Positions 4,169 through 50,124 of a stretch of DNA of 64,000 nt are shown piece after piece. Origin of the DNA: a virus. Lineage: Duplodnaviria > Caudoviricetes. Made by a program: the position numbers and the translations under genes. The number at the start of each line of letters is the position of its first letter. Position 1 is the stretch's first letter. The stretch is from positions 36 to 64,035 of the IMG/VR virus record IMGVR_UViG_3300031753_000005; one strand, 5' to 3'. The notes under the pieces are model-generated. The model saw only the letters and a list, made by a program, of their open reading frames with translations, was not told the origin of the DNA and ran no database searches.

Positions 4169-4390
4169 ATGAGTTCTAATGAGATTCCAGGGGCATTATC
4201 CGCTTGGCAAACGATAAAGAGGATTGCCGATCGGCTTGAATCGCCGCACGCCGATAAGATCTTCGTGGGCAAGGATTATACTAAGGCCGACTTGCGTCGC
4301 GATCTCTTAGCGACGATTCCGGATTCTGTTAAGTCGCACACGAATTATACTGAGACCGCTCTGCGGCGCTTTTTGGAAGCGACAGAGTAA
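4169..4390 (+). CDS. Small protein with SPHADKIFVGKDYTKADL module
   Basis: Module shared with 16318-16599; GAGG upstream. Confidence 0.6.
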   Translation: MSSNEIPGALSAWQTIKRIADRLESPHADKIFVGKDYTKADLRRDLLATIPDSVKSHTNYTETALRRFLEATE

Positions 4391-4911
4391 TGGGCGGCAA
4401 AGCTCCCGGCGGCGGTTATAGCGGCGGGATGTCAGGCGGCTATGGCGGCGGCGGAATGGCCGGAGGCGGCGGCCAGGGAGCTGCCCCATGGGCAGGCCAA
4501 ACACCCGGCGGCAGCCAGTTCCAGACATCATTTCAGCCAGGCGCGCAAAGTCCCGCGAGCTATTGGACGCCGCAGCGAATGGCCGGCGCCTCACCTGATG
4601 CTGGCGGGATGATGCAGCCGCCTCCGGCAACGATGCCCGGCCCTGGCGCAATGCCGCCCGGACTCGCCGGAATGCAGGCAGCCAATGCCGCAGACCCCAA
4701 CGCCTACCATAACCTATTAGCCGGGATTTTGACGCCGCAGAACACCGGAACATTCGATCAAATGGTGCAAATGCACGCTCAAAACCCGAACGCGTACCAT
4801 AATTATTTCAACGCATTGCTGGGCGGCGGTCTCGGAGGCGGCGGCGGTATGTACGGCGGCCTCGGGGGCGGTATGTATGGCGGCGCCAGAGGCGGTCCCA
4901 TCGGAGCATAG
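4390..4911 (+). CDS. Gly/Met-rich protein, possible small ejection protein
   Basis: MGGK start, internal NAYHN repeat, position in the block. Confidence 0.55.
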   Translation: MGGKAPGGGYSGGMSGGYGGGGMAGGGGQGAAPWAGQTPGGSQFQTSFQPGAQSPASYWTPQRMAGASPDAGGMMQPPPATMPGPGAMPPGLAGMQAANAADPNAYHNLLAGILTPQNTGTFDQMVQMHAQNPNAYHNYFNALLGGGLGGGGGMYGGLGGGMYGGARGGPIGA

Positions 4912-4915
4912 ATGC

Positions 4916-5140
4916 TCAACTAAGCGCCTTGGGTCTTTCTCCGCAGCTGGGGCAAGGGTTTTGATACCTGTCATGCGGGCAATGTAAGCCCCACCATTTG
5001 GCGCCGCACATTTGGCAGCGCCGATAATAATGCCAAGCAGTTTCTGGCATGTTCTCATCGGGACTTTCCGGATCTGCCTGAAATTCGCAATTGCATTCGG
5101 CGCCAGGGATGATCGTGTCGTCGATCGGAATGACAGTCAT
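4916..5140 (-). CDS. Antisense small Cys-rich (Zn-binding) protein
   Basis: CNC, CQMC and CPSC motifs. Confidence 0.55.
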   Translation of the reverse strand: MTVIPIDDTIIPGAECNCEFQADPESPDENMPETAWHYYRRCQMCGAKWWGLHCPHDRYQNPCPSCGERPKALS

Positions 5141-7709: not shown

Positions 7710-10104
7710 CTCCAGCGCGGGGCTTGACCCGCTCTCGATGCTGCTGCTCGGCGGTGCCGCCGGTCTCGGCCAGGCGGGTGCCACATCGCGGCTGCCGATC
7801 TCCGGTGCGCAGGCCTGGGGCGGGTTGGGGGCCGGCTTGATGGCCGGGAACCAGGCGGCGAATCTAGCCCAATTACAGCAACAGCAGGCGAGTAGCGAAG
7901 CGCTTAAGAACGCGCTCGGGCTCGAGGCGGTAAGGCAGCAGCAGGCCGTAATGGGCCAGCCGATTCCGACAATGCAGGATATCCGCAGCGGGAAATATCA
8001 GGGCTTGGCTCCGCTCTTCGCCAAGATGTATGCCGACCAGCAACAGCGTCTGGCGGCGCCGACGATACCTACGCCCACCGCGCAACAGAATACGCCGAGT
8101 CCCACTCCGGATGCGCAGCCTGCAGATTTCTTGCCTCCGGTTTACGCGCCTGGCTCCGTTGCGGCAAAGAATATAGCGAACAACAATCCGGGGAACCTGA
8201 AGACCGCGGACGGTGGCTGGATGTCTTTTCCAGACATGCCCTCGGGGATCGAAGGCATCGGAAATTGGCTCGATAGAGCTCAGAACGTGCATGGGCTCAC
8301 CACGGTCCGACAACTCATCGACGACCCTGTGCACGGATACGCGCCGAGCGCCGATCCTGGGAACAAAGGCAAAATGCTCCCCGAGGTGGCGGCCAATCGG
8401 ATCGGAGTAGGGCCGGATGACACGGTCAATCTTTCCGATCCCATGATGCGCGAGAAAATGACTCGCGCGCTCCTGCAGCAAGAGCAGGGCGGCAACGCGC
8501 TTTCAAAAGGGCGGGGGATACAGCTTGCGCAAAATGTGCCACAGGGCCAGCAATCCCAGCCGCTAGGCACCAGCCAGCAGCCGCAACCCGATACTTCCAC
8601 GCCTTTTGATCGCCTGCAGGCGGTAATGTTTGAGCGCGCGCAGCGATCCGTCGCTGGATTGCCCCTCACGCCGACCGAGCAAATGCTGATGGCGGCGAAG
8701 CTCTATCCACAGGGGAGCTCCGAAAACAAGATTCTGATGGGGCAGGCGCTCAAGAATTCCGGCATCGAGCCCTTCAAGGGCGGCGAGCGCCCAAATGCGC
8801 CGCTGATGGAATACGATCCTCAAGGGGCAATGAACGGGCAACCATATCGTGTCGTGCAGCCGCCCGGCTATACTCAAGCCGTTAAAGAACGGGCCGAAGC
8901 AGATGCCAGGGGGCGGGCGACGGTGGAGTCGCAAACGGTCGTCGACCCGGACACCGGCACCCCGTTTGCGACGAGTCGTGCGAATGCCTTTGCGCCAGGA
9001 GCGCCCCCGATTCAGACGGGGCTCTCGCCGGGTGCTCATGCGTATGCTGAGGCAGGCGGCAAGGCTTTCTTCGAACCGCCAGTCGAGACATTTGGACCCG
9101 GAGGCGTCCCGCGGCAGGTGCCGCGACAAAATCTGCCCGGTGCGTTCGGCCCGATGGCAACCGGCTTGCCGGCTCAAGGATCGTCGGCTCCTATCACGCC
9201 TCCGGCTGCCACTACACAGCCAGCACAAGCCCCCGAAGCTGCGGCACCGGCATTCCAGATGAATACGCCTGCCGGTCCTAAGCCCGTAGGACAAGTCCAC
9301 GTCAACGATATGTTCCCCAATGGGACCGGGATTCCGCAAGAGCCGCAACCGCCACCCGGAACAGGCTTCGGGCCACCTACGGAATATCAAAAAGACGTTC
9401 AAAAAGACGACGCTACACGTGTCGAGCAATATAATAAGGAACAGTCTGCGGCGCAGAAGCAATACCAGGATTTATTGCATTTGCGCGAAGTGCTGAATAA
9501 TGGTTTCAATACGAGCCGTGCGGCGCGGATCGGCGCTGATTTCGCAAACCTCGCGCATGCCTTTGGTGCCGATTGGGCGTATCCGCGGGGATGGGCGCCG
9601 GCAAGCGCGGCAGAGTTTGATAAGGCGTCAACCGATCTTGTCTTTGCGGCTCTCAAGGCTCTTCCGGGGCAGCCTCGCGTGTCTGAAATCACCGGATTGC
9701 AGAAGGCCAATCCGAGCCTAGCGATCCCGCGTGAAACAAACTTCAATATGATGAACGATATTCTTGCGTCGAATAAGTGGCAAGACGAGCGCGCGCGATT
9801 GGCGACGGAATTCAAGGTCGCCAATCCAGGAACGCCGTTATCGGTATTTGATTCGGCTTATAACCGGATGGCACCTCTTGTCGACGTCACGAACGAATAC
9901 AAAGGAGTTATGCGCCAGCACGGCGCGGTCTTTCCTGAAGAGACACCAGCCGGCGGCGCTGTAGCGCCGGCACCGACTAACCGCGCCGCACTTCCAAAGA
10001 CAGCGACGGGCCCGAATGGCCATAAGCTCTATTTGCCGCCCGGTGGCAGTCAGTGGATTGATACGGTGACCGGGAAACCCTATGTAGCGCCACCGTCACG
10101 CTAA
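7693..10104 (+). CDS. Large DNA ejection protein with putative muralytic NNPGNL domain
   Basis: 803 aa; NNNPGNLK...F..GI...YAP..D motif found in virion peptidoglycan hydrolase domains. Confidence 0.75.
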   Translation: MAGMFDSSAGLDPLSMLLLGGAAGLGQAGATSRLPISGAQAWGGLGAGLMAGNQAANLAQLQQQQASSEALKNALGLEAVRQQQAVMGQPIPTMQDIRSGKYQGLAPLFAKMYADQQQRLAAPTIPTPTAQQNTPSPTPDAQPADFLPPVYAPGSVAAKNIANNNPGNLKTADGGWMSFPDMPSGIEGIGNWLDRAQNVHGLTTVRQLIDDPVHGYAPSADPGNKGKMLPEVAANRIGVGPDDTVNLSDPMMREKMTRALLQQEQGGNALSKGRGIQLAQNVPQGQQSQPLGTSQQPQPDTSTPFDRLQAVMFERAQRSVAGLPLTPTEQMLMAAKLYPQGSSENKILMGQALKNSGIEPFKGGERPNAPLMEYDPQGAMNGQPYRVVQPPGYTQAVKERAEADARGRATVESQTVVDPDTGTPFATSRANAFAPGAPPIQTGLSPGAHAYAEAGGKAFFEPPVETFGPGGVPRQVPRQNLPGAFGPMATGLPAQGSSAPITPPAATTQPAQAPEAAAPAFQMNTPAGPKPVGQVHVNDMFPNGTGIPQEPQPPPGTGFGPPTEYQKDVQKDDATRVEQYNKEQSAAQKQYQDLLHLREVLNNGFNTSRAARIGADFANLAHAFGADWAYPRGWAPASAAEFDKASTDLVFAALKALPGQPRVSEITGLQKANPSLAIPRETNFNMMNDILASNKWQDERARLATEFKVANPGTPLSVFDSAYNRMAPLVDVTNEYKGVMRQHGAVFPEETPAGGAVAPAPTNRAALPKTATGPNGHKLYLPPGGSQWIDTVTGKPYVAPPSR

Positions 10105-11756
10105 TGGCTGACGCGCCCGATCTCCCGCAGGGATACACACTCGATCAAAGCGGCGAGGTGCCTGTTGCGCTACCGCCTGGTTACGCGCTCGATACGGGTC
10201 CAAAAGGTACATTGCAAAGCGGTCCAGCCCTGGTTGGGACCGGAGTATACCAAGGGCTGCTCCGCGATCCGCTAAATTCCGGCGCCGTTTTGCTGGCCAA
10301 GGGACTGAGCGCCCTCGCCCCGCAAGGATCTTCGCTCGAAAAATGGGCGAACGATCAACTCTCGTCGATAGAGCAGGCAAACGCCACAAACGAGTCGGCT
10401 TATTCAAAACTCGTGGGATCTAATCCCGGCGCAACGGCGGGGCGCACGGTTGGCAACATCGGCGCAACCCTTCCTTTTGCGGCAGTAATGCCGGGAGGCG
10501 CTGCGACGTCGCTGACCGGGCGGCTATTGCAGGGTGCGGGCCTCGGTGCCGCCACAGGGGCGCTGCAGCCCACACAACCTGATGGTAATTATTGGGGAGA
10601 AGTGGGCCGGAATATCTTGATGGGCGGCGCTGCAGGCGCTGGCGCTCCGGCCGTAATGTCTTCGGCCGCTTCGGCGATCGCCCCTTCCGCTTCCTCGCGA
10701 TTGGCACCGCTTTTGAAGGCCGGCATAACCCCGACGATCGGGCAGGCAGCTGGCGGCGCGATCAACAGGCTCGAGCAAGCGGCGACCAGCATTCCGCTTC
10801 TAGGAGACTTCGTCAAATCCGCCCGCGCCCGGGTCGGCGATCAATTCTATCGGGCCGCGGTCAATGAGGGATTGTTGCCTATCGGGCAGCAGCTTGACAA
10901 TGCCACCGCGTCAGGACGCGATGCGTTCACCGAGATGCGCGGCAAGATTCAAAATAATTACAACACGCTGCTGCCAAACGTCACGGCGACGATCGACCCC
11001 ACTTTCGCGGCAAACATCCAGAAGCTGGTCGGGCTCAGTAAATTTCTGCCGGGCGGCAGGCCAGCCCAGTTTCAAAATTTTCTTAGTAACGAGGTGCTGA
11101 ACAAATTCAACGCCCAAACAGGCAACATGACCGGCGAAACATTTAAGGACGTCGAAAGCGTACTCGGTCAGGAAGCAAACGATTATATCCGGGCACCTCA
11201 TCCTGATGACCGGAAATATGGCCGCGCCGTTCTGCAGTTGCAGGCAGAGATGCGCGACATGCTGGCGCGGAACAACCCGGATCAAGCCGCAGCGCTGTCG
11301 GCGAACAACGATGCCTGGAGTCGCATGCTGAGGGTACAGCGTGCCTCATCCTATACAGGTGCCGACGAAGGGGTATTCTCGCCGGCCCAGCTTCAGCGCG
11401 CGGTGCGGGCGATGACGCCAGAAAGCGTTTACGCGCAAGGCAAAGGCGTTATGCAGCCGCTTGCCGATACGGGCAAGAGCGTCCTCGGCAGCACGGTGCC
11501 GGATAGCGGCACACCATTCCGCAGCTTGGCGACAATCCTCGGGGGAGCCGCCCTTGGGCATGGCATGAGCCCGGAGATAGCGGCTGGAGCGGCCGCAGGT
11601 GGTATTGGTGCGGCGGGCATCTATTCGCCGCTCGGCCAGTGGTTGCTGACGCACGGACTCGTATCGCGGCCGCCAGGATCGCAATCAGTCGCCGCGATGC
11701 TTAGAGGCCTATCACCTTATGCCTCAGTAGGTGCGGCGTCTACGACCGCCCCTTGA
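10104..11756 (+). CDS. DNA ejection protein
   Basis: Ala/Gly-rich; GITPTIGQ and C-terminal VPDSGT motifs; TAATG coupling. Confidence 0.75.
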   Translation: MADAPDLPQGYTLDQSGEVPVALPPGYALDTGPKGTLQSGPALVGTGVYQGLLRDPLNSGAVLLAKGLSALAPQGSSLEKWANDQLSSIEQANATNESAYSKLVGSNPGATAGRTVGNIGATLPFAAVMPGGAATSLTGRLLQGAGLGAATGALQPTQPDGNYWGEVGRNILMGGAAGAGAPAVMSSAASAIAPSASSRLAPLLKAGITPTIGQAAGGAINRLEQAATSIPLLGDFVKSARARVGDQFYRAAVNEGLLPIGQQLDNATASGRDAFTEMRGKIQNNYNTLLPNVTATIDPTFAANIQKLVGLSKFLPGGRPAQFQNFLSNEVLNKFNAQTGNMTGETFKDVESVLGQEANDYIRAPHPDDRKYGRAVLQLQAEMRDMLARNNPDQAAALSANNDAWSRMLRVQRASSYTGADEGVFSPAQLQRAVRAMTPESVYAQGKGVMQPLADTGKSVLGSTVPDSGTPFRSLATILGGAALGHGMSPEIAAGAAAGGIGAAGIYSPLGQWLLTHGLVSRPPGSQSVAAMLRGLSPYASVGAASTTAP

Positions 11757-12890: not shown

Positions 12891-13055
12891 ATGAACCTAA
12901 CCCGATTTCGCGATCTAAGCGCAACCCAAAAGATCGAGATTGTCGAGCGAGTGCAGGAAGGTCAGCCCCGCGGACTAATATGCGGCGATTTGAATTTGAC
13001 AGAAGAGACAGTGCGACAGGTTCTGAGAGAAGCTAATGCTCTTCGCCGGCCATGA
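12891..13055 (+). CDS. Small HTH-like protein
   Basis: KIEIVERVQEG...ICGDLNLTEETVRQVL pattern. Confidence 0.4.
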   Translation: MNLTRFRDLSATQKIEIVERVQEGQPRGLICGDLNLTEETVRQVLREANALRRP

Positions 13056-45997: not shown

Positions 45998-46060
45998 CGT
46001 CTCGGCACCGGCCGGCTCGCAGTTCGAGCTTGAAAGGCGGTCCTCTAGCCGAAGGCATCT

Positions 46061-46225
46061 TTAGGGGAGTTTTTGCAGAAGCTGCAACAATTCGGGATCG
46101 TGGGAGACGTCGAAAAATCTCAGCAGGATTTGGAGCCCGCGCTCTAATGCCCTCACGCGACGCTCTAACTCATCGACTTTTTGAGAGGCGCTGAAGCCCC
46201 AATTCACTTCGGAAAAGTCGCTCAT
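46061..46225 (-). CDS. 54-aa coiled-coil protein
   Basis: Manual translation: MSDFSEVNWGFSASQKVDELERRVRALERGLQILLRFF... Confidence 0.45.
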   Translation of the reverse strand: MSDFSEVNWGFSASQKVDELERRVRALERGLQILLRFFDVSHDPELLQLLQKLP

Positions 46226-46239
46226 TCATCCCACCCGAT

Positions 46240-46281
46240 AGCCGGCCGATCTTTCCTTCGGGATGGATCGGCCGGCTTTTT
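46240..46281 (+). terminator. Intrinsic terminator at the convergence of the late and leftward operons
   Basis: AGCCGGCCGATC...CTTCGG...GATCGGCCGGCT followed by a T-run. Confidence 0.8.
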
Positions 46282-46286
46282 GCGTT

Positions 46287-46745
46287 TCAGGGGCTCGCGT
46301 ACTGCTGAGTCGCCGACGCTTGCGGCTGCCTGCCTGCGGGCCGGTTGGCCCATGCATAGATCTTGCCGTCACGCTCCATAGCGAGATTGCTCTTCTTCCA
46401 CCTGTTGATCGCGATGCCGAGGTGGTTTGCCCGCATGCCGGGACAGGCCTTCAGGACCGCGTCCCGGGTTATGCCCGACGCCCCGGCCGAGATGACCTGA
46501 TTCAACGCCTTAGCAAATGATGTCTGTTTCGCGACCTCGCCGTTCGACTTCGCCATCGCCGTTTTCGCCGGCCGGCCGCGGCGACGCATCGGCGTTGCGG
46601 CTGACTTGCTGGGCGTCGGGCTCGGGCCACCAAATCTGGCAAAGACTTTCTCTGCCGCCTCGAGCTCGGTCAGCTCGCTCGTGAACTTCGCGATTTGTGT
46701 GGTAAGGTACATTTTCCGTTCTGTGATTTGGGCTTGGGTCGTCAT
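46287..46745 (-). CDS. Putative nucleoid-associated protein (coiled coil + AT-hook + wHTH)
   Basis: N-terminal heptads, RRRGRP, C-terminal GITR....L...DGKIY winged-helix pattern. Confidence 0.6.
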   Translation of the reverse strand: MTTQAQITERKMYLTTQIAKFTSELTELEAAEKVFARFGGPSPTPSKSAATPMRRRGRPAKTAMAKSNGEVAKQTSFAKALNQVISAGASGITRDAVLKACPGMRANHLGIAINRWKKSNLAMERDGKIYAWANRPAGRQPQASATQQYASP

Positions 46746-46912
46746 AACCTTTCTCGCTTGATTGGTTGATCGGGGTTGATCAACGTCTGGCGCGATTTAA
46801 CAGCGTGGCCGCGGGTTTGCAACTGGCGAGCGCGGTATCCGACGCCATTTGGTCAGAGCCAAGCTTCCGCTTATGAGCCGTGCGCCGGTCGCGACTCCAA
46901 GGCTCTGCGCGC

Positions 46913-47116
46913 TCATGGTTCCCTCCACGGGATTACCTCGCGTACCGTCTTGATGATGTGAATCTCGCCGTTGCCTCTGTCGTAGCCGTAGCCGAGACGG
47001 GCGAGTGCCTTTGCCTCAGCAAGTGCCGCCTCCATCGATCTTGCCGTCGTCGAACCGCCATATCCGCCGTCCCGCGGCCACCATACGGCGACCTGATAGG
47101 TCGTGCTTTTGCTCAT
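46913..47116 (-). CDS. Small hypothetical protein
   Basis: AAGGAG RBS; coupled to the upstream ORF. Confidence 0.5.
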   Translation of the reverse strand: MSKSTTYQVAVWWPRDGGYGGSTTARSMEAALAEAKALARLGYGYDRGNGEIHIIKTVREVIPWREP

Positions 47117-47337
47117 CCCGGCTCCTTCAAGACTCCCGGAAATGGGCATATTGCGCTGACTGTTGGGGCATTCCCATAGAGCACGCACTCCCCGACATTC
47201 ATCATGAGGTTCATCGAAATTAGGAGTCCCGCGAACAGTCCGAGCATGATGAGAAGGAGAAGCCACAATCCGACCACATCGCCCCTTCCCGGTTTTGCAA
47301 CCCCGTCAGTAACCTCTTGATATCTGGTAGAGCGCAT
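47113..47337 (-). CDS. Small single-TM protein
   Basis: Long hydrophobic stretch. Confidence 0.5.
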   Translation of the reverse strand: MRSTRYQEVTDGVAKPGRGDVVGLWLLLLIMLGLFAGLLISMNLMMNVGECVLYGNAPTVSAICPFPGVLKEPG

Positions 47338-47505
47338 TAGAACTGTTTTGCAGAAAGCGCGGCTCTGGCGTTACGTTTCCATATGATTTGAAGTCCGCGC
47401 GAGCCACCGGACCCGGTACTCTTCCGTCGTTGTTGTAGCTCATGTTTTCGGCGCCGCGCGAGAATTGTTTTGCAGTTCAACCGGCGGCGACGCCGGAGTT
47501 TTGCA
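47292..47505. promoter_or_regulatory. Putative attP region with integrase arm-type repeats
   Basis: GTTTTGCA at 47292, 47345, 47467 and 47498, two on each side of the tRNA fragment; AGAA(C/T)TGTTTTGCAG occurs twice. Confidence 0.7.
47385..47425 (-). tRNA. selC: 5' half of tRNA-Sec (attP core fragment, not a complete tRNA)
   Basis: GGAAGAGT AC CGGGTC CGGT GGCTCG C GCGGA CTTCAAA TC: 8-nt acceptor strand, 6-bp D-stem with 4-nt loop, UCA anticodon; truncated just after the loop. Confidence 0.85.
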
Positions 47506-47772
47506 AACCGTTCTGGATTCGATCGCTTGACGAATTTCGGAGGCCGTAAGCCCGACAGCCGACAATTCCGCTTGATCCTCGATCTTCCCCGCTATCGCTG
47601 CGCACCGCTCCCGCTCCTCCTGCCGACCCTCCTCGCGGACCGTAGCGGATAGCTTTTCGCAGCCGGCTATCAGTGCCCTAAATGCCTCAGCCGAAATATA
47701 GGCCTGACCTGGCGTGGCCAACCATTCATCCAGCATTTCCCGGACCATCTCGCGCTCGGTCGGCTCGATCAT
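47440..47772 (-). CDS. Hypothetical protein (ERERCAAIA motif)
   Basis: Recurrent phage motif; coupled. Confidence 0.6.
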   Translation of the reverse strand: MIEPTEREMVREMLDEWLATPGQAYISAEAFRALIAGCEKLSATVREEGRQEERERCAAIAGKIEDQAELSAVGLTASEIRQAIESRTVCKTPASPPVELQNNSRAAPKT

Positions 47773-47954
47773 TTCCTCTTCCTCGCCTCCTCAGCAATCC
47801 TGTCGAGAAGGCGGATCAGAAAGTTAACCTCATACACGCCGAGAATTTGCAATTGTGCCGGGTGTAGCCTGGACTCCTCGCCCGCGCGGTTCCGAATGGT
47901 GCGTAGCGTTTCATAGTCCTTTTTGCCAATTAGATTTTGCAGCGGATCGATCAT
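47769..47954 (-). CDS. Small hypothetical protein
   Basis: ATGA overlaps. Confidence 0.55.
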   Translation of the reverse strand: MIDPLQNLIGKKDYETLRTIRNRAGEESRLHPAQLQILGVYEVNFLIRLLDRIAEEARKRK

Positions 47955-48595
47955 TTCCCCTTTCCCGTTTCGGCCCGGCTGAAGGCGTCCATCCTCGCGC
48001 CGCAGCGAGCAAGGATGTCATAGTGTACCGGGTGGAGATGTCCGTCCGGCAATCCGTGATCGTGGGCATAGATAGCAGCCCAAGGAGCGCAGAACGCGAT
48101 CACGTCTCGCCGCAATTCCTTGATCTCCTCAGCGGCTTCCTGGCGGACCTCCTCGCGGGCTGCAGCAATGCGACGCAAGAGGCAATCTATGTCTTTATTC
48201 GACCAAGCGTCGGGCGTTTTCATGCGGCGATCGCGGATCAGCAGCTCGTCGCGCGCGTCGGTTTTCGGCGGCCAATCCTCGCCATAAGCGCGCGTGATCG
48301 CCTCCTCGGTCGTTCCAAGCAACTCCGCTATCTCGGCATTGCGCGGGTCGGTTTCCGCAGTCTCTGCGGGAAGGGCCCCGGAGAGCCATAGCCGATGAGC
48401 TTCGCTGGCACCTTCTTGGCGACCCCCCTCGCGGGCGGCAGCGACGGCCTGTAGGGCTCGGCGCATATAAAGTGCCAACCGAATAGACCACCAATGCCCT
48501 GAGTCGCTTGGCAACTCGGCGTGACTGAAATCCTCCTCAGCGAGATTCTCTGCGTTGTCGATCATCTCACGGTCGCGGTCGGTGATCTTGGTCAT
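47951..48595 (-). CDS. Mosaic hypothetical protein
   Basis: AAAREEVRQE-type repeats; coupled to the integrase stop. Confidence 0.6.
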   Translation of the reverse strand: MTKITDRDREMIDNAENLAEEDFSHAELPSDSGHWWSIRLALYMRRALQAVAAAREGGRQEGASEAHRLWLSGALPAETAETDPRNAEIAELLGTTEEAITRAYGEDWPPKTDARDELLIRDRRMKTPDAWSNKDIDCLLRRIAAAREEVRQEAAEEIKELRRDVIAFCAPWAAIYAHDHGLPDGHLHPVHYDILARCGARMDAFSRAETGKGK

Positions 48596-49674
48596 TTCCT
48601 CTTCCTCGCTTGATCGAGCAGCACCACAGCGGCGGCGGCCCGACGCCTTCGGTCTGTCCCTCGGGAATAATGCTCTGCCATGGCCAAGGTCTTGTCTCCC
48701 AGCATCGCGGCGATGGTGCGCTGATCCACGCCCAGATCGCCTAGCCTTGACGCCGCGGTGCTTCGTAGGCCGTGGAAGGTCAGCCCCATGTCGACCCGCG
48801 CTTGGCGTTCCAGCCGCGCTATAAGCGCCCTGAAAGCTTTTGCGAGGCCGCCCTTGTATGGACGACCATCTGTGCTGGTGACGATCGTAGTGGCAACCCG
48901 CGGTGTTTCGGCGAGGATTTCGCGGAGGTGCGCCGCGATCGGGATCACGTTCTCGAGGTCATTCTTGTGCTTCCAGGTAAGCGTCGTCCCGTCAGGCGAG
49001 ATCGCTGACCAAGTGATGCGGCGCGCCATGTCGATCCGGAGTGCGGCGAACATGCCGAGCGCGATGGCGGTCCGCAACCCGCCGGTTGCCTCGGCGAGCA
49101 CGACCTCGCACTCGTATTCCGACCATGCCCGGTGAGGCGTAGCGCGAGCCAAGCTTTTGATACTGCGAGCGGGATTGAATGGCAAAAAACCGCGAGGCAC
49201 GCCCCAAGAGAACAGCAGCCGCAGGACGTCGCGCACCCGATCGGCGAAGCGGCGCTTGCGCGTCTCGAATGCCTTATCCCGGATGCGCAGCACGGCCGGC
49301 GCGTCGATCTGCGACACCGGCATGCCGTTGAGCGGGGCGAGCCAATCGAAGACGGCGGCGTAATCGGAGCGGGTGCGCGGTGCTAGCGCGGCGTATTCGG
49401 GAGCCGCGCGGTAGGCGGCGATCAGCGCGCCCAGTGTGCCGGGCACATGGTGGGGAGCGGCCTTAGCCTCTTGAGCGGCGAGGCTCCGCTCCCCTGGTGT
49501 CGGGCTATCGGCCCCCGGCTTTAGCCAAGATCCAGTCTCACGTATCGCGCGCAACTCGTCAAGGAAAGCCTCGGTGCCGGGCGCGGCCTTGATGCGCGTC
49601 TTGGTCGCGCGGTCGTAGTAGTAGGTCCGCCCTTTGGCGTTGACCTTGTTGATGCCGCGAATCTTCACGTACAT
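48592..49674 (-). CDS. int: Tyrosine integrase
   Basis: N-terminal KGRTYYY arm-binding domain; catalytic R (AALR), K, HGLR and Y (EHYS). Confidence 0.92.
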   Translation of the reverse strand: MYVKIRGINKVNAKGRTYYYDRATKTRIKAAPGTEAFLDELRAIRETGSWLKPGADSPTPGERSLAAQEAKAAPHHVPGTLGALIAAYRAAPEYAALAPRTRSDYAAVFDWLAPLNGMPVSQIDAPAVLRIRDKAFETRKRRFADRVRDVLRLLFSWGVPRGFLPFNPARSIKSLARATPHRAWSEYECEVVLAEATGGLRTAIALGMFAALRIDMARRITWSAISPDGTTLTWKHKNDLENVIPIAAHLREILAETPRVATTIVTSTDGRPYKGGLAKAFRALIARLERQARVDMGLTFHGLRSTAASRLGDLGVDQRTIAAMLGDKTLAMAEHYSRGTDRRRRAAAAVVLLDQARKRK

Positions 49675-49695
49675 TCCATGAAGGCTAGCACCGAT

Positions 49696-50124
49696 CTATA
49701 TGCCTGCGTATCGCCTATGCGACGCAGGCGGCTTGATGCCGAGTTTTCGATTCTCCTCAGCGATCCGATTGCGTCTCCGATTGATTTGATTTTTACGAGC
49801 GCGCGAGGCTGGCGGCGGGATCTTTGTCCTCGGGCCGTCCTCCCGCAGACTGAAGAAGGTCGGCTCAAGATAGGAGCGTGCCGCATCAGTCCCTTCCGTC
49901 TCTCCAATCGCATCAAAGTCACGCAATAACCTGATCGCATTGCGAGGCAGCCGCCAGCGGTAGCGCCATCCTTCTTTCGTGAAAGCACACCCCGCACCAT
50001 CGACTAGGACATATCCGTGACCACCTAGATCGAACTGGCGATTGAGAGCGTTGGCGATAACGCAGCGGCGGCGATTGCCGCAAACAGCCTTCATAATGTC
50101 CTCTTGGCTGATTTCGAGCTTCAT
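49696..50124 (-). CDS. Hypothetical protein (CVIANAL motif)
   Basis: GGAG RBS; recurrent phage motif. Confidence 0.6.
   Translation of the reverse strand: MKLEISQEDIMKAVCGNRRRCVIANALNRQFDLGGHGYVLVDGAGCAFTKEGWRYRWRLPRNAIRLLRDFDAIGETEGTDAARSYLEPTFFSLREDGPRTKIPPPASRARKNQINRRRNRIAEENRKLGIKPPASHRRYAGI

Follow-up and report, generated by a model that had tools for sequence, protein, structure and literature searches.

A candidate lambda-type attP carrying the 5′ half of tRNA-Sec in a temperate phage, with reversed polarity towards host selC

Introduction

The locus described here raises the question of why a complete phage genome should carry, downstream of its integrase gene and between repeated motifs, the 5′ half of a selenocysteine tRNA gene, and what would become of the host gene if the phage integrated there. 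An earlier note on this DNA took the 3′ part of the gene to be the usual cargo of tRNA-targeting elements, which agrees with the Islander survey (3760 islands with a 3′ tDNA fragment versus 159 with a 5′ fragment; PMC4383910) and with a study of the Pf phages, in which attP is the 27-bp 3′ end of tRNA-Sec (PMC7549136). In two further sources, recombination with the tRNA 5′ region is called "considerably less frequent", with Zhao and Williams 2002 and archaeal cases cited in support (PMC6563490), and cases involving the 5′ region are described as rarely met in bacteria (review PMC8371274).

The window, meaning the whole 64,000-nt stretch that was analysed, is nearly all of a 64,035-bp IMG/VR virus record with a completeness rating of 100%, and encodes a portal, a virion protein, an endolysin, a replication initiator, an ERF recombinase, a YqaJ exonuclease and a tyrosine integrase. 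The att region lies inside the record, between phage genes to its left and right, and the record is therefore in the unintegrated form. From comparisons at the sequence level, we consider it very probable that a 214-bp region at 47292-47505 is a lambda-type attP that recombines with host selC at or beside the anticodon loop, in reversed polarity: the 5′ half of the gene would come from the phage.

Results and Discussion

A tRNA-Sec 5′ half identical to a host selC

The minus strand at 47425-47385 reads GGAAGAGTACCGGGTCCGGTGGCTCGCGCGGACTTCAAATC and has all of the tRNA-Sec hallmarks claimed for it in the earlier note, namely an 8-nt acceptor strand, a 6-bp D-stem with a 4-nt loop and the anticodon loop. 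In order from 47425, the acceptor strand is followed by 2 nt, the D-arm (two of the six stem pairs being G-T), a 6-nt anticodon-stem strand and the loop CTTCAAA (47393-47387), after which comes TC. ARAGORN called no tRNA anywhere in the 64-kb window, and the Rfam tRNA-Sec model RF01852 scored the half at 20.9 bits (E 0.3; gathering score 47), a low value that is as expected for half a gene. Since the Rfam score is below threshold, ARAGORN made no call and the continuation matches the 3′ half of the host gene described below at 16 of 53 positions, which is background, the element is a fragment and the phage has no tRNA gene here. A possible vestigial 3′ half at 47335-47326, which Rfam paired with the acceptor strand, was judged a chance match given its one mismatch, the many positions available for such a pairing and the poor agreement with the host 3′ half.

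An exact search of metagenome contigs with the 41-mer returned one contig, L056, on which the gene order is selD-selA-selB-selC and the encoded proteins are an AIR-synthase-type protein (consistent with SelD), SelA and SelB. The selC gene of this contig is complete (4311-4400, 9 nt past the selB stop), scores 68.3 bits with RF01852, well past the gathering threshold (47), and ARAGORN likewise annotates it as tRNA-SeC, so that the match to a bacterial selC that the earlier note had sought exists and is to a genuine 5′ half. Phage and contig are identical over 42 of 42 nt (47385-47426, minus strand), which comprise the 41-nt tRNA-Sec 5′ half and one base preceding it and constitute the core identity block of the putative attP. 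Identity stops 2 nt past the anticodon loop, as the earlier note had stated for the similarity to tRNA-Sec; the next 10 nt match at seven positions before agreement falls to background over the rest of the 3′ half, and the other flanks are unrelated. With host genes immediately before an intact tRNA, L056 is an empty, unoccupied attB and contains no junction.

The same 41-mer had also been expected to suggest the host. It did lead to a real selC, but the organism behind L056, the one attB contig found, can be placed only as a probable member of the Pseudomonadota, the phylum of most of its SelB look-alikes. No exact match to the 41-mer was present in a genome collection of 185,579 species or in IMG/VR, where the record of the window itself is possibly absent from the scanned set. 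Likewise, 46000-50000 matched none of 50,697 phage records by blastn.

Arm repeats and the layout of the putative attP

The motif GTTTTGCA occurs as four exact copies in the window, all of them within 47292-47505, while shuffled sequences contain 1.9 copies per whole window. The copies form two nested pairs around the tRNA half with spacings of 122 and 206 nt, in keeping with the earlier report of four flanking repeats, as all four window copies lie there and both sides of the half are represented. The inner pair consists of the 15-mers AGAACTGTTTTGCAG on the P′ arm (47339-47353) and AGAATTGTTTTGCAG on the P arm (47461-47475), and the outer pair of the 12-mers GTTTTGCAACCC on the P′ arm (47292-47303) and GTTTTGCAAACC on the P arm (47498-47509), all given on the plus strand. 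The two P-arm repeats are candidate arm-type integrase sites, and each pairs with one of the P′-arm repeats. Between the P′-arm repeats, at 47310-47322 on the minus strand, lies a weak motif, one of three matches in the window, resembling the IHF consensus. In sequence, the layout of repeats and core is that of a lambda-type attP, and the repeats containing GTTTTGCA would be arm-type sites bound by the integrase.

The integrase gene (48592-49674, minus strand) encodes a tyrosine integrase of the lambda-Int type (PF00589, 43.1 bits; PF22022, 25.8 bits; PHROG 1). Its family profile matches full-length lambda Int (1z1b) with an E-value of 1.1e-13, and the match starts at profile position 54, leaving an unassigned N-terminus of a length suiting an arm-binding domain. 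The resemblance to phage lambda thus covers the Int profile match, a core of ~200-240 bp with repeated arm motifs on both sides and one IHF-like motif; in contrast to lambda attP, the target here is a tRNA gene, whereas that of lambda is intergenic, the arm motifs differ, and the arm sites of the window are putative.

The earlier note had placed three genes, about 1.2 kb, between the integrase gene and the site, and the measured distance from int to the tRNA half is 1166 nt, occupied by three minus-strand ORFs of 214 (47951-48595), 61 (47769-47954) and 110 amino acids (47440-47772). The last of these runs into the P-arm repeats at its 3′ end and stops 14 nt short of the tRNA half. Searches of Pfam and PHROG gave no family match for any of the three, and tblastn against eight related loci (L001-L006, L008 and L009) found no counterpart of them, the 214- and 61-aa ORFs among them; accessory genes may have been inserted here, separating int from its site. 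Nothing near int could be identified as an excisionase. On the P′ side the first ORF encodes a hydrophobic protein of 74 amino acids (47113-47337, minus strand), which in a lysogen would lie directly downstream of host selDAB and the displaced host 5′ half.

We propose that the lambda-type integrase would exchange strands with host selC at or beside the 7-nt anticodon loop. The phage would contribute the acceptor strand, D-arm, 5′ anticodon-stem strand and loop of selC, and the host the 3′ half. The attL junction would then consist of host selDAB, the host 5′ half and the phage P′ arm starting with the 74-aa ORF, and attR of phage int, the three ORFs, the leader and 5′ half and finally the host 3′ half, putting the working gene on the int strand, 1.2 kb downstream of int. 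With 42 of 42 positions identical in the shared block, a wild-type tRNA would result. We infer that integration takes place, at which point strands are exchanged and how the rebuilt selC is transcribed.

Related phages carry the same half at the equivalent place

A search with the single integrase protein found no relative in genome contigs or viral contigs, and a profile built from 35 integrase homologues yielded 55 viral loci. A regular-expression scan of these loci found a tRNA-Sec 5′-half look-alike downstream of int and on the int strand in L001, L002, L003 and L005, which are four of the five loci closest to the window integrase (44-47% identity). In L001, L002, L003 and L005 the distance from int to the start of the half is 762, 163, 499 and 312 nt, respectively, compared with 1166 nt in the window. 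These four phages have flanking repeats of their own (GTTTTCCA or TGGCAAAC), spaced 119-120 nt and either 206 or 143 nt apart. The five phage halves differ from one another, with all differences preserving the structure: across the five phages all 30 D-stem cells pair, five of the six pairs are changed on both sides, and the covariation score was reached by none of 500 shuffles. A degenerate selC-5′-half pattern run over IMG/VR recovered four contigs, all four being these same phages.

These observations bear on the reading that the tRNA-Sec resemblance is a product of chance, or marks a stand-alone regulatory RNA with no role in integration. The marginal Rfam E-value and the silence of ARAGORN would suit such a reading, which is nonetheless in practice refuted by the sequence comparisons: the match to a real selC is complete over 42 nt, the D-stem covaries across phages, and within IMG/VR the pattern hit nothing outside this integrase clade.

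The fifth close locus, L004, has intact arm repeats and an integrase that barely differs from the L003 and L005 enzymes, and at the homologous position (~8310-8360) contains a degenerate tRNA-Sec look-alike with an unpaired D-stem and an altered loop; its core may be a decayed or retargeted attP. Within close pairs, the tRNA half was compared up to the loop. L003 and L005 agree at 983 of 1029 positions of int DNA, 54 of 108 of the P arm (where the arms differ in length), and 100 of 100 then 198 of 200 of the P′ arm, and at 22 of 33 of the tRNA half; L001 and L002 agree at 975 of 1067, 77 of 85 and 78 of 100 positions of int, P arm and P′ arm, respectively, and at 22 of 32 of the half. In these pairs the half is far more divergent than the surrounding phage DNA, and this therefore suggests that it is renewed from hosts. 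The leader of the window (47427-47464, minus strand) also resembles L056 4272-4309, which comprises the 3′ end of host selB and the selC leader, at 21 of 38 positions in register and in another reading frame, a score equalled or beaten by one of 11,283 host windows and two of 9,127 phage windows. Host DNA captured in the past may have left this likeness to the end of selB. We infer that the tRNA half and leader were acquired from hosts, probably by recombination in lysogens. Separately, the window leader repeats a 9-mer of the tRNA half, CTCGCGCGG.

A further reading of the locus is that an aberrant excision left the tRNA half in the phage as a passive remnant of host DNA, with the true attP elsewhere. 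Captured DNA could be expected to resemble the host selB-selC junction as the leader does; the site is 1.2 kb from int; and no attL or attR junction and no lysogen of the window phage or its four close relatives emerged from the exact 41-mer searches of the genome collection and IMG/VR, from the degenerate-pattern scan of IMG/VR or from scans of viral contigs with the P-arm and P′-arm sequences of the relatives, which returned only contigs already known. We regard this reading as very improbable, however, since aberrant excision from an ordinary 3′-half lysogen would yield a complete tRNA and no half, and since int overlaps or abuts its neighbouring ORFs, leaving no other non-coding site beside it. 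Moreover, in each of the five phages the retained 5′ half ends at the loop and is framed by repeats of conserved spacing, and half-tRNAs occupy the equivalent place in relatives of the same integrase family.

L002 additionally encodes a complete tRNA-Arg(TCT) at 11054-11130, 4 nt past the integrase stop and 83 nt before the tRNA-Sec half, and a second tRNA-Arg(CCG) at 12934-13010. In this phage a rebuilt selC would stand in tandem behind a phage tRNA.

Polarity within the integrase family

Scanning for T-arm and D-arm signatures within 1.6 kb past int covered 51 of the 55 loci, with L050 and L053-L055 set aside as partial integrase matches; ten further loci had less than 70 nt of sequence past int. 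A tRNA 3′ half without a 5′ half was found in 26 loci, in 22 of them on the strand opposite int and in four on the same strand, and anticodon readings assign these halves to Phe, Met, Gln, Lys and His. The 3′-half layout of these relatives is the ordinary polarity. Similarity to complete genes begins 2-3 nt before the anticodon loop for Phe (L006 compared with L007) and Gln (L030, L033 and L034 compared with L023 and L027).

A maximum-likelihood tree of the window integrase and those of 42 loci (43 integrases, midpoint root), from which L011, L019, L029, L037-L039, L042, L047, L050, L051 and L053-L055 were omitted as near-duplicates or short matches, groups the window with L001-L003, L005 and L004 (support 97/95). 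Under midpoint rooting, on which the placement depends, this 5′-half clade is nested among carriers of 3′ halves. Reversed polarity is accordingly best read as an inherited trait of one integrase clade within a family of normal polarity.

Reversed polarity also appears in a distant clade (27-30% integrase identity), at tRNA-Gln. L043 has a complete tRNA-Gln (10968-11041) on the int strand 67 nt past int, at the edge of a provirus, and so represents the integrated state, while L044, L045, L046 and L052, which are in attP form, have only the first 22-24 nt of tRNA-Gln within ~100 nt past int; the L043 leader matches that of these four loci. The boundary in the tRNA-Gln clade is the D-arm, with the acceptor strand and D-arm carried by the phage, unlike the anticodon loop seen at tRNA-Sec.

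For the window phage, the position of strand exchange is predicted to be at or beside CTTCAAA (47387-47393, minus strand), the putative 7-bp overlap region, because the loop is unchanged across the five phages and the host selC, the identity block ends 2 nt past it, and the 3′ halves of relatives begin near the anticodon loop. Williams 2002 is said to define an anticodon-loop sublocation class of tRNA att sites, and the identity block is bounded at the anticodon stem-loop as in that class. The central claim of the earlier note, that a crossover in the anticodon loop would rebuild selC from a 5′ half supplied by the phage, is strongly supported by the 42-nt match to L056, the four relatives, the arm repeats and the anticodon-loop sites of the family.

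Comparison with known reversed-polarity elements

Reversed tDNA polarity is already known and is rare, and the window phage is an unusually well-documented case. Integrative elements with reversed target orientation in bacteria were reportedly described by Zhao and Williams 2002 (J Bacteriol 184:859). These elements and the Islander 5′-fragment islands resemble the window phage in that an element with a tyrosine integrase carries the 5′ portion of a tRNA gene, so that the 5′ end of the rebuilt gene and the DNA upstream come from the element. The present case differs from the reversed-orientation elements in being a complete temperate phage in attP form with a matching empty attB, and in its selC target, its boundary at the anticodon loop and its polarity, which would be a clade trait within a normal-polarity family.

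The pTN3-like or TKV4-type integrases of Thermococcales also have the 5′ half of a tRNA gene as attB, and the rebuilt gene is expressed from a promoter of the element (PMC8371274). The review describes pTN3-like integrases as "suicidal", with the att site inside the int gene and the Pfam assignment PF16795, whereas the window int is intact, belongs to PF00589/PF22022, has its site 1166 nt beyond the int stop and is from a phage of a bacterial host. The filamentous Pf prophages of Pseudomonas aeruginosa share the selC target but use its 3′ 27 bp (PMC7549136), compared with the 41-nt 5′ half here. In the literature searched, we found no phage attP carrying the 5′ half of selC.

The window thus pairs a complete phage attP with its exact empty attB for a rare mirror image of tRNA-gene integration. 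It makes three questions accessible to direct test: the determinants of polarity in a tRNA-targeting integrase, the expression of a tRNA gene once its promoter side has been replaced by phage DNA, and any effect of lysogeny on selenoprotein synthesis. The ends of such prophages will escape annotation tools that seek only the 3′ parts of tRNAs.

Transcription of a rebuilt selC

Integration as proposed would cut selC off from the selDAB operon that it normally follows. The earlier note had suggested that the phage brings a replacement promoter, and part of this stands: a candidate -10 box, GCTACAAC (47432-47439, minus strand), lies 6 nt before the tRNA starts, in a register occupied in the host by GCTAGACC. 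The box fits GCTANAWC, the alphaproteobacterial -10 consensus. The remainder of the suggestion fared less well, as the best -35 partner of the box matches at four of seven positions, a sigma-70 scan of 46200-48700 returned no sites, and relaxed promoter scans of the five phages revealed no shared upstream element. We give a promoter dedicated to the rebuilt selC slightly less than an even chance.

Read-through from the upstream ORF followed by processing is an equal candidate. Under this explanation the site is still attP, and the rebuilt selC would be transcribed from the int-proximal operon or from a promoter further upstream, and not from GCTACAAC, an outcome to which we give slightly less than an even chance. 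The 14-nt spacing of the tRNA half behind the 110-aa ORF mirrors the 9 nt between host selB and selC, and the empty sigma-70 scan and poor -35 partner point the same way. The position of the L002 tRNA-Arg between int and the Sec half implies transcription through that region, and there is an archaeal precedent in pTN3, where the integrase promoter is used (PMC8371274). Against this, the -10-like box is in register with host GCTAGACC, and its distance to the tRNA start suits a promoter. Lysogens usually keep early phage operons repressed, and read-through alone under such repression would starve the cell of tRNA-Sec, yet the half has been kept host-perfect.

A lambda-type attP rebuilding selC might place host selenoprotein synthesis under prophage control, as the earlier note proposed. 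A bolder and rather unlikely extension is that the half and leader form a swappable, host-matching cassette, renewed in lysogens from the selC of each host, which would set the hosts that can be lysogenised without loss of selenoproteins and put the supply of tRNA-Sec on phage signals. If this were true, the prophage would gain a handle on the host selenoproteome.

On L056, selC is followed at 4404-4440 by a hairpin of a C-run and a G-run with a T-rich stretch, a likely terminator that would stay with the rebuilt gene after integration. Convergent to selC and downstream of it is a gene for a two-domain cold-shock protein (4455-5102, minus strand).
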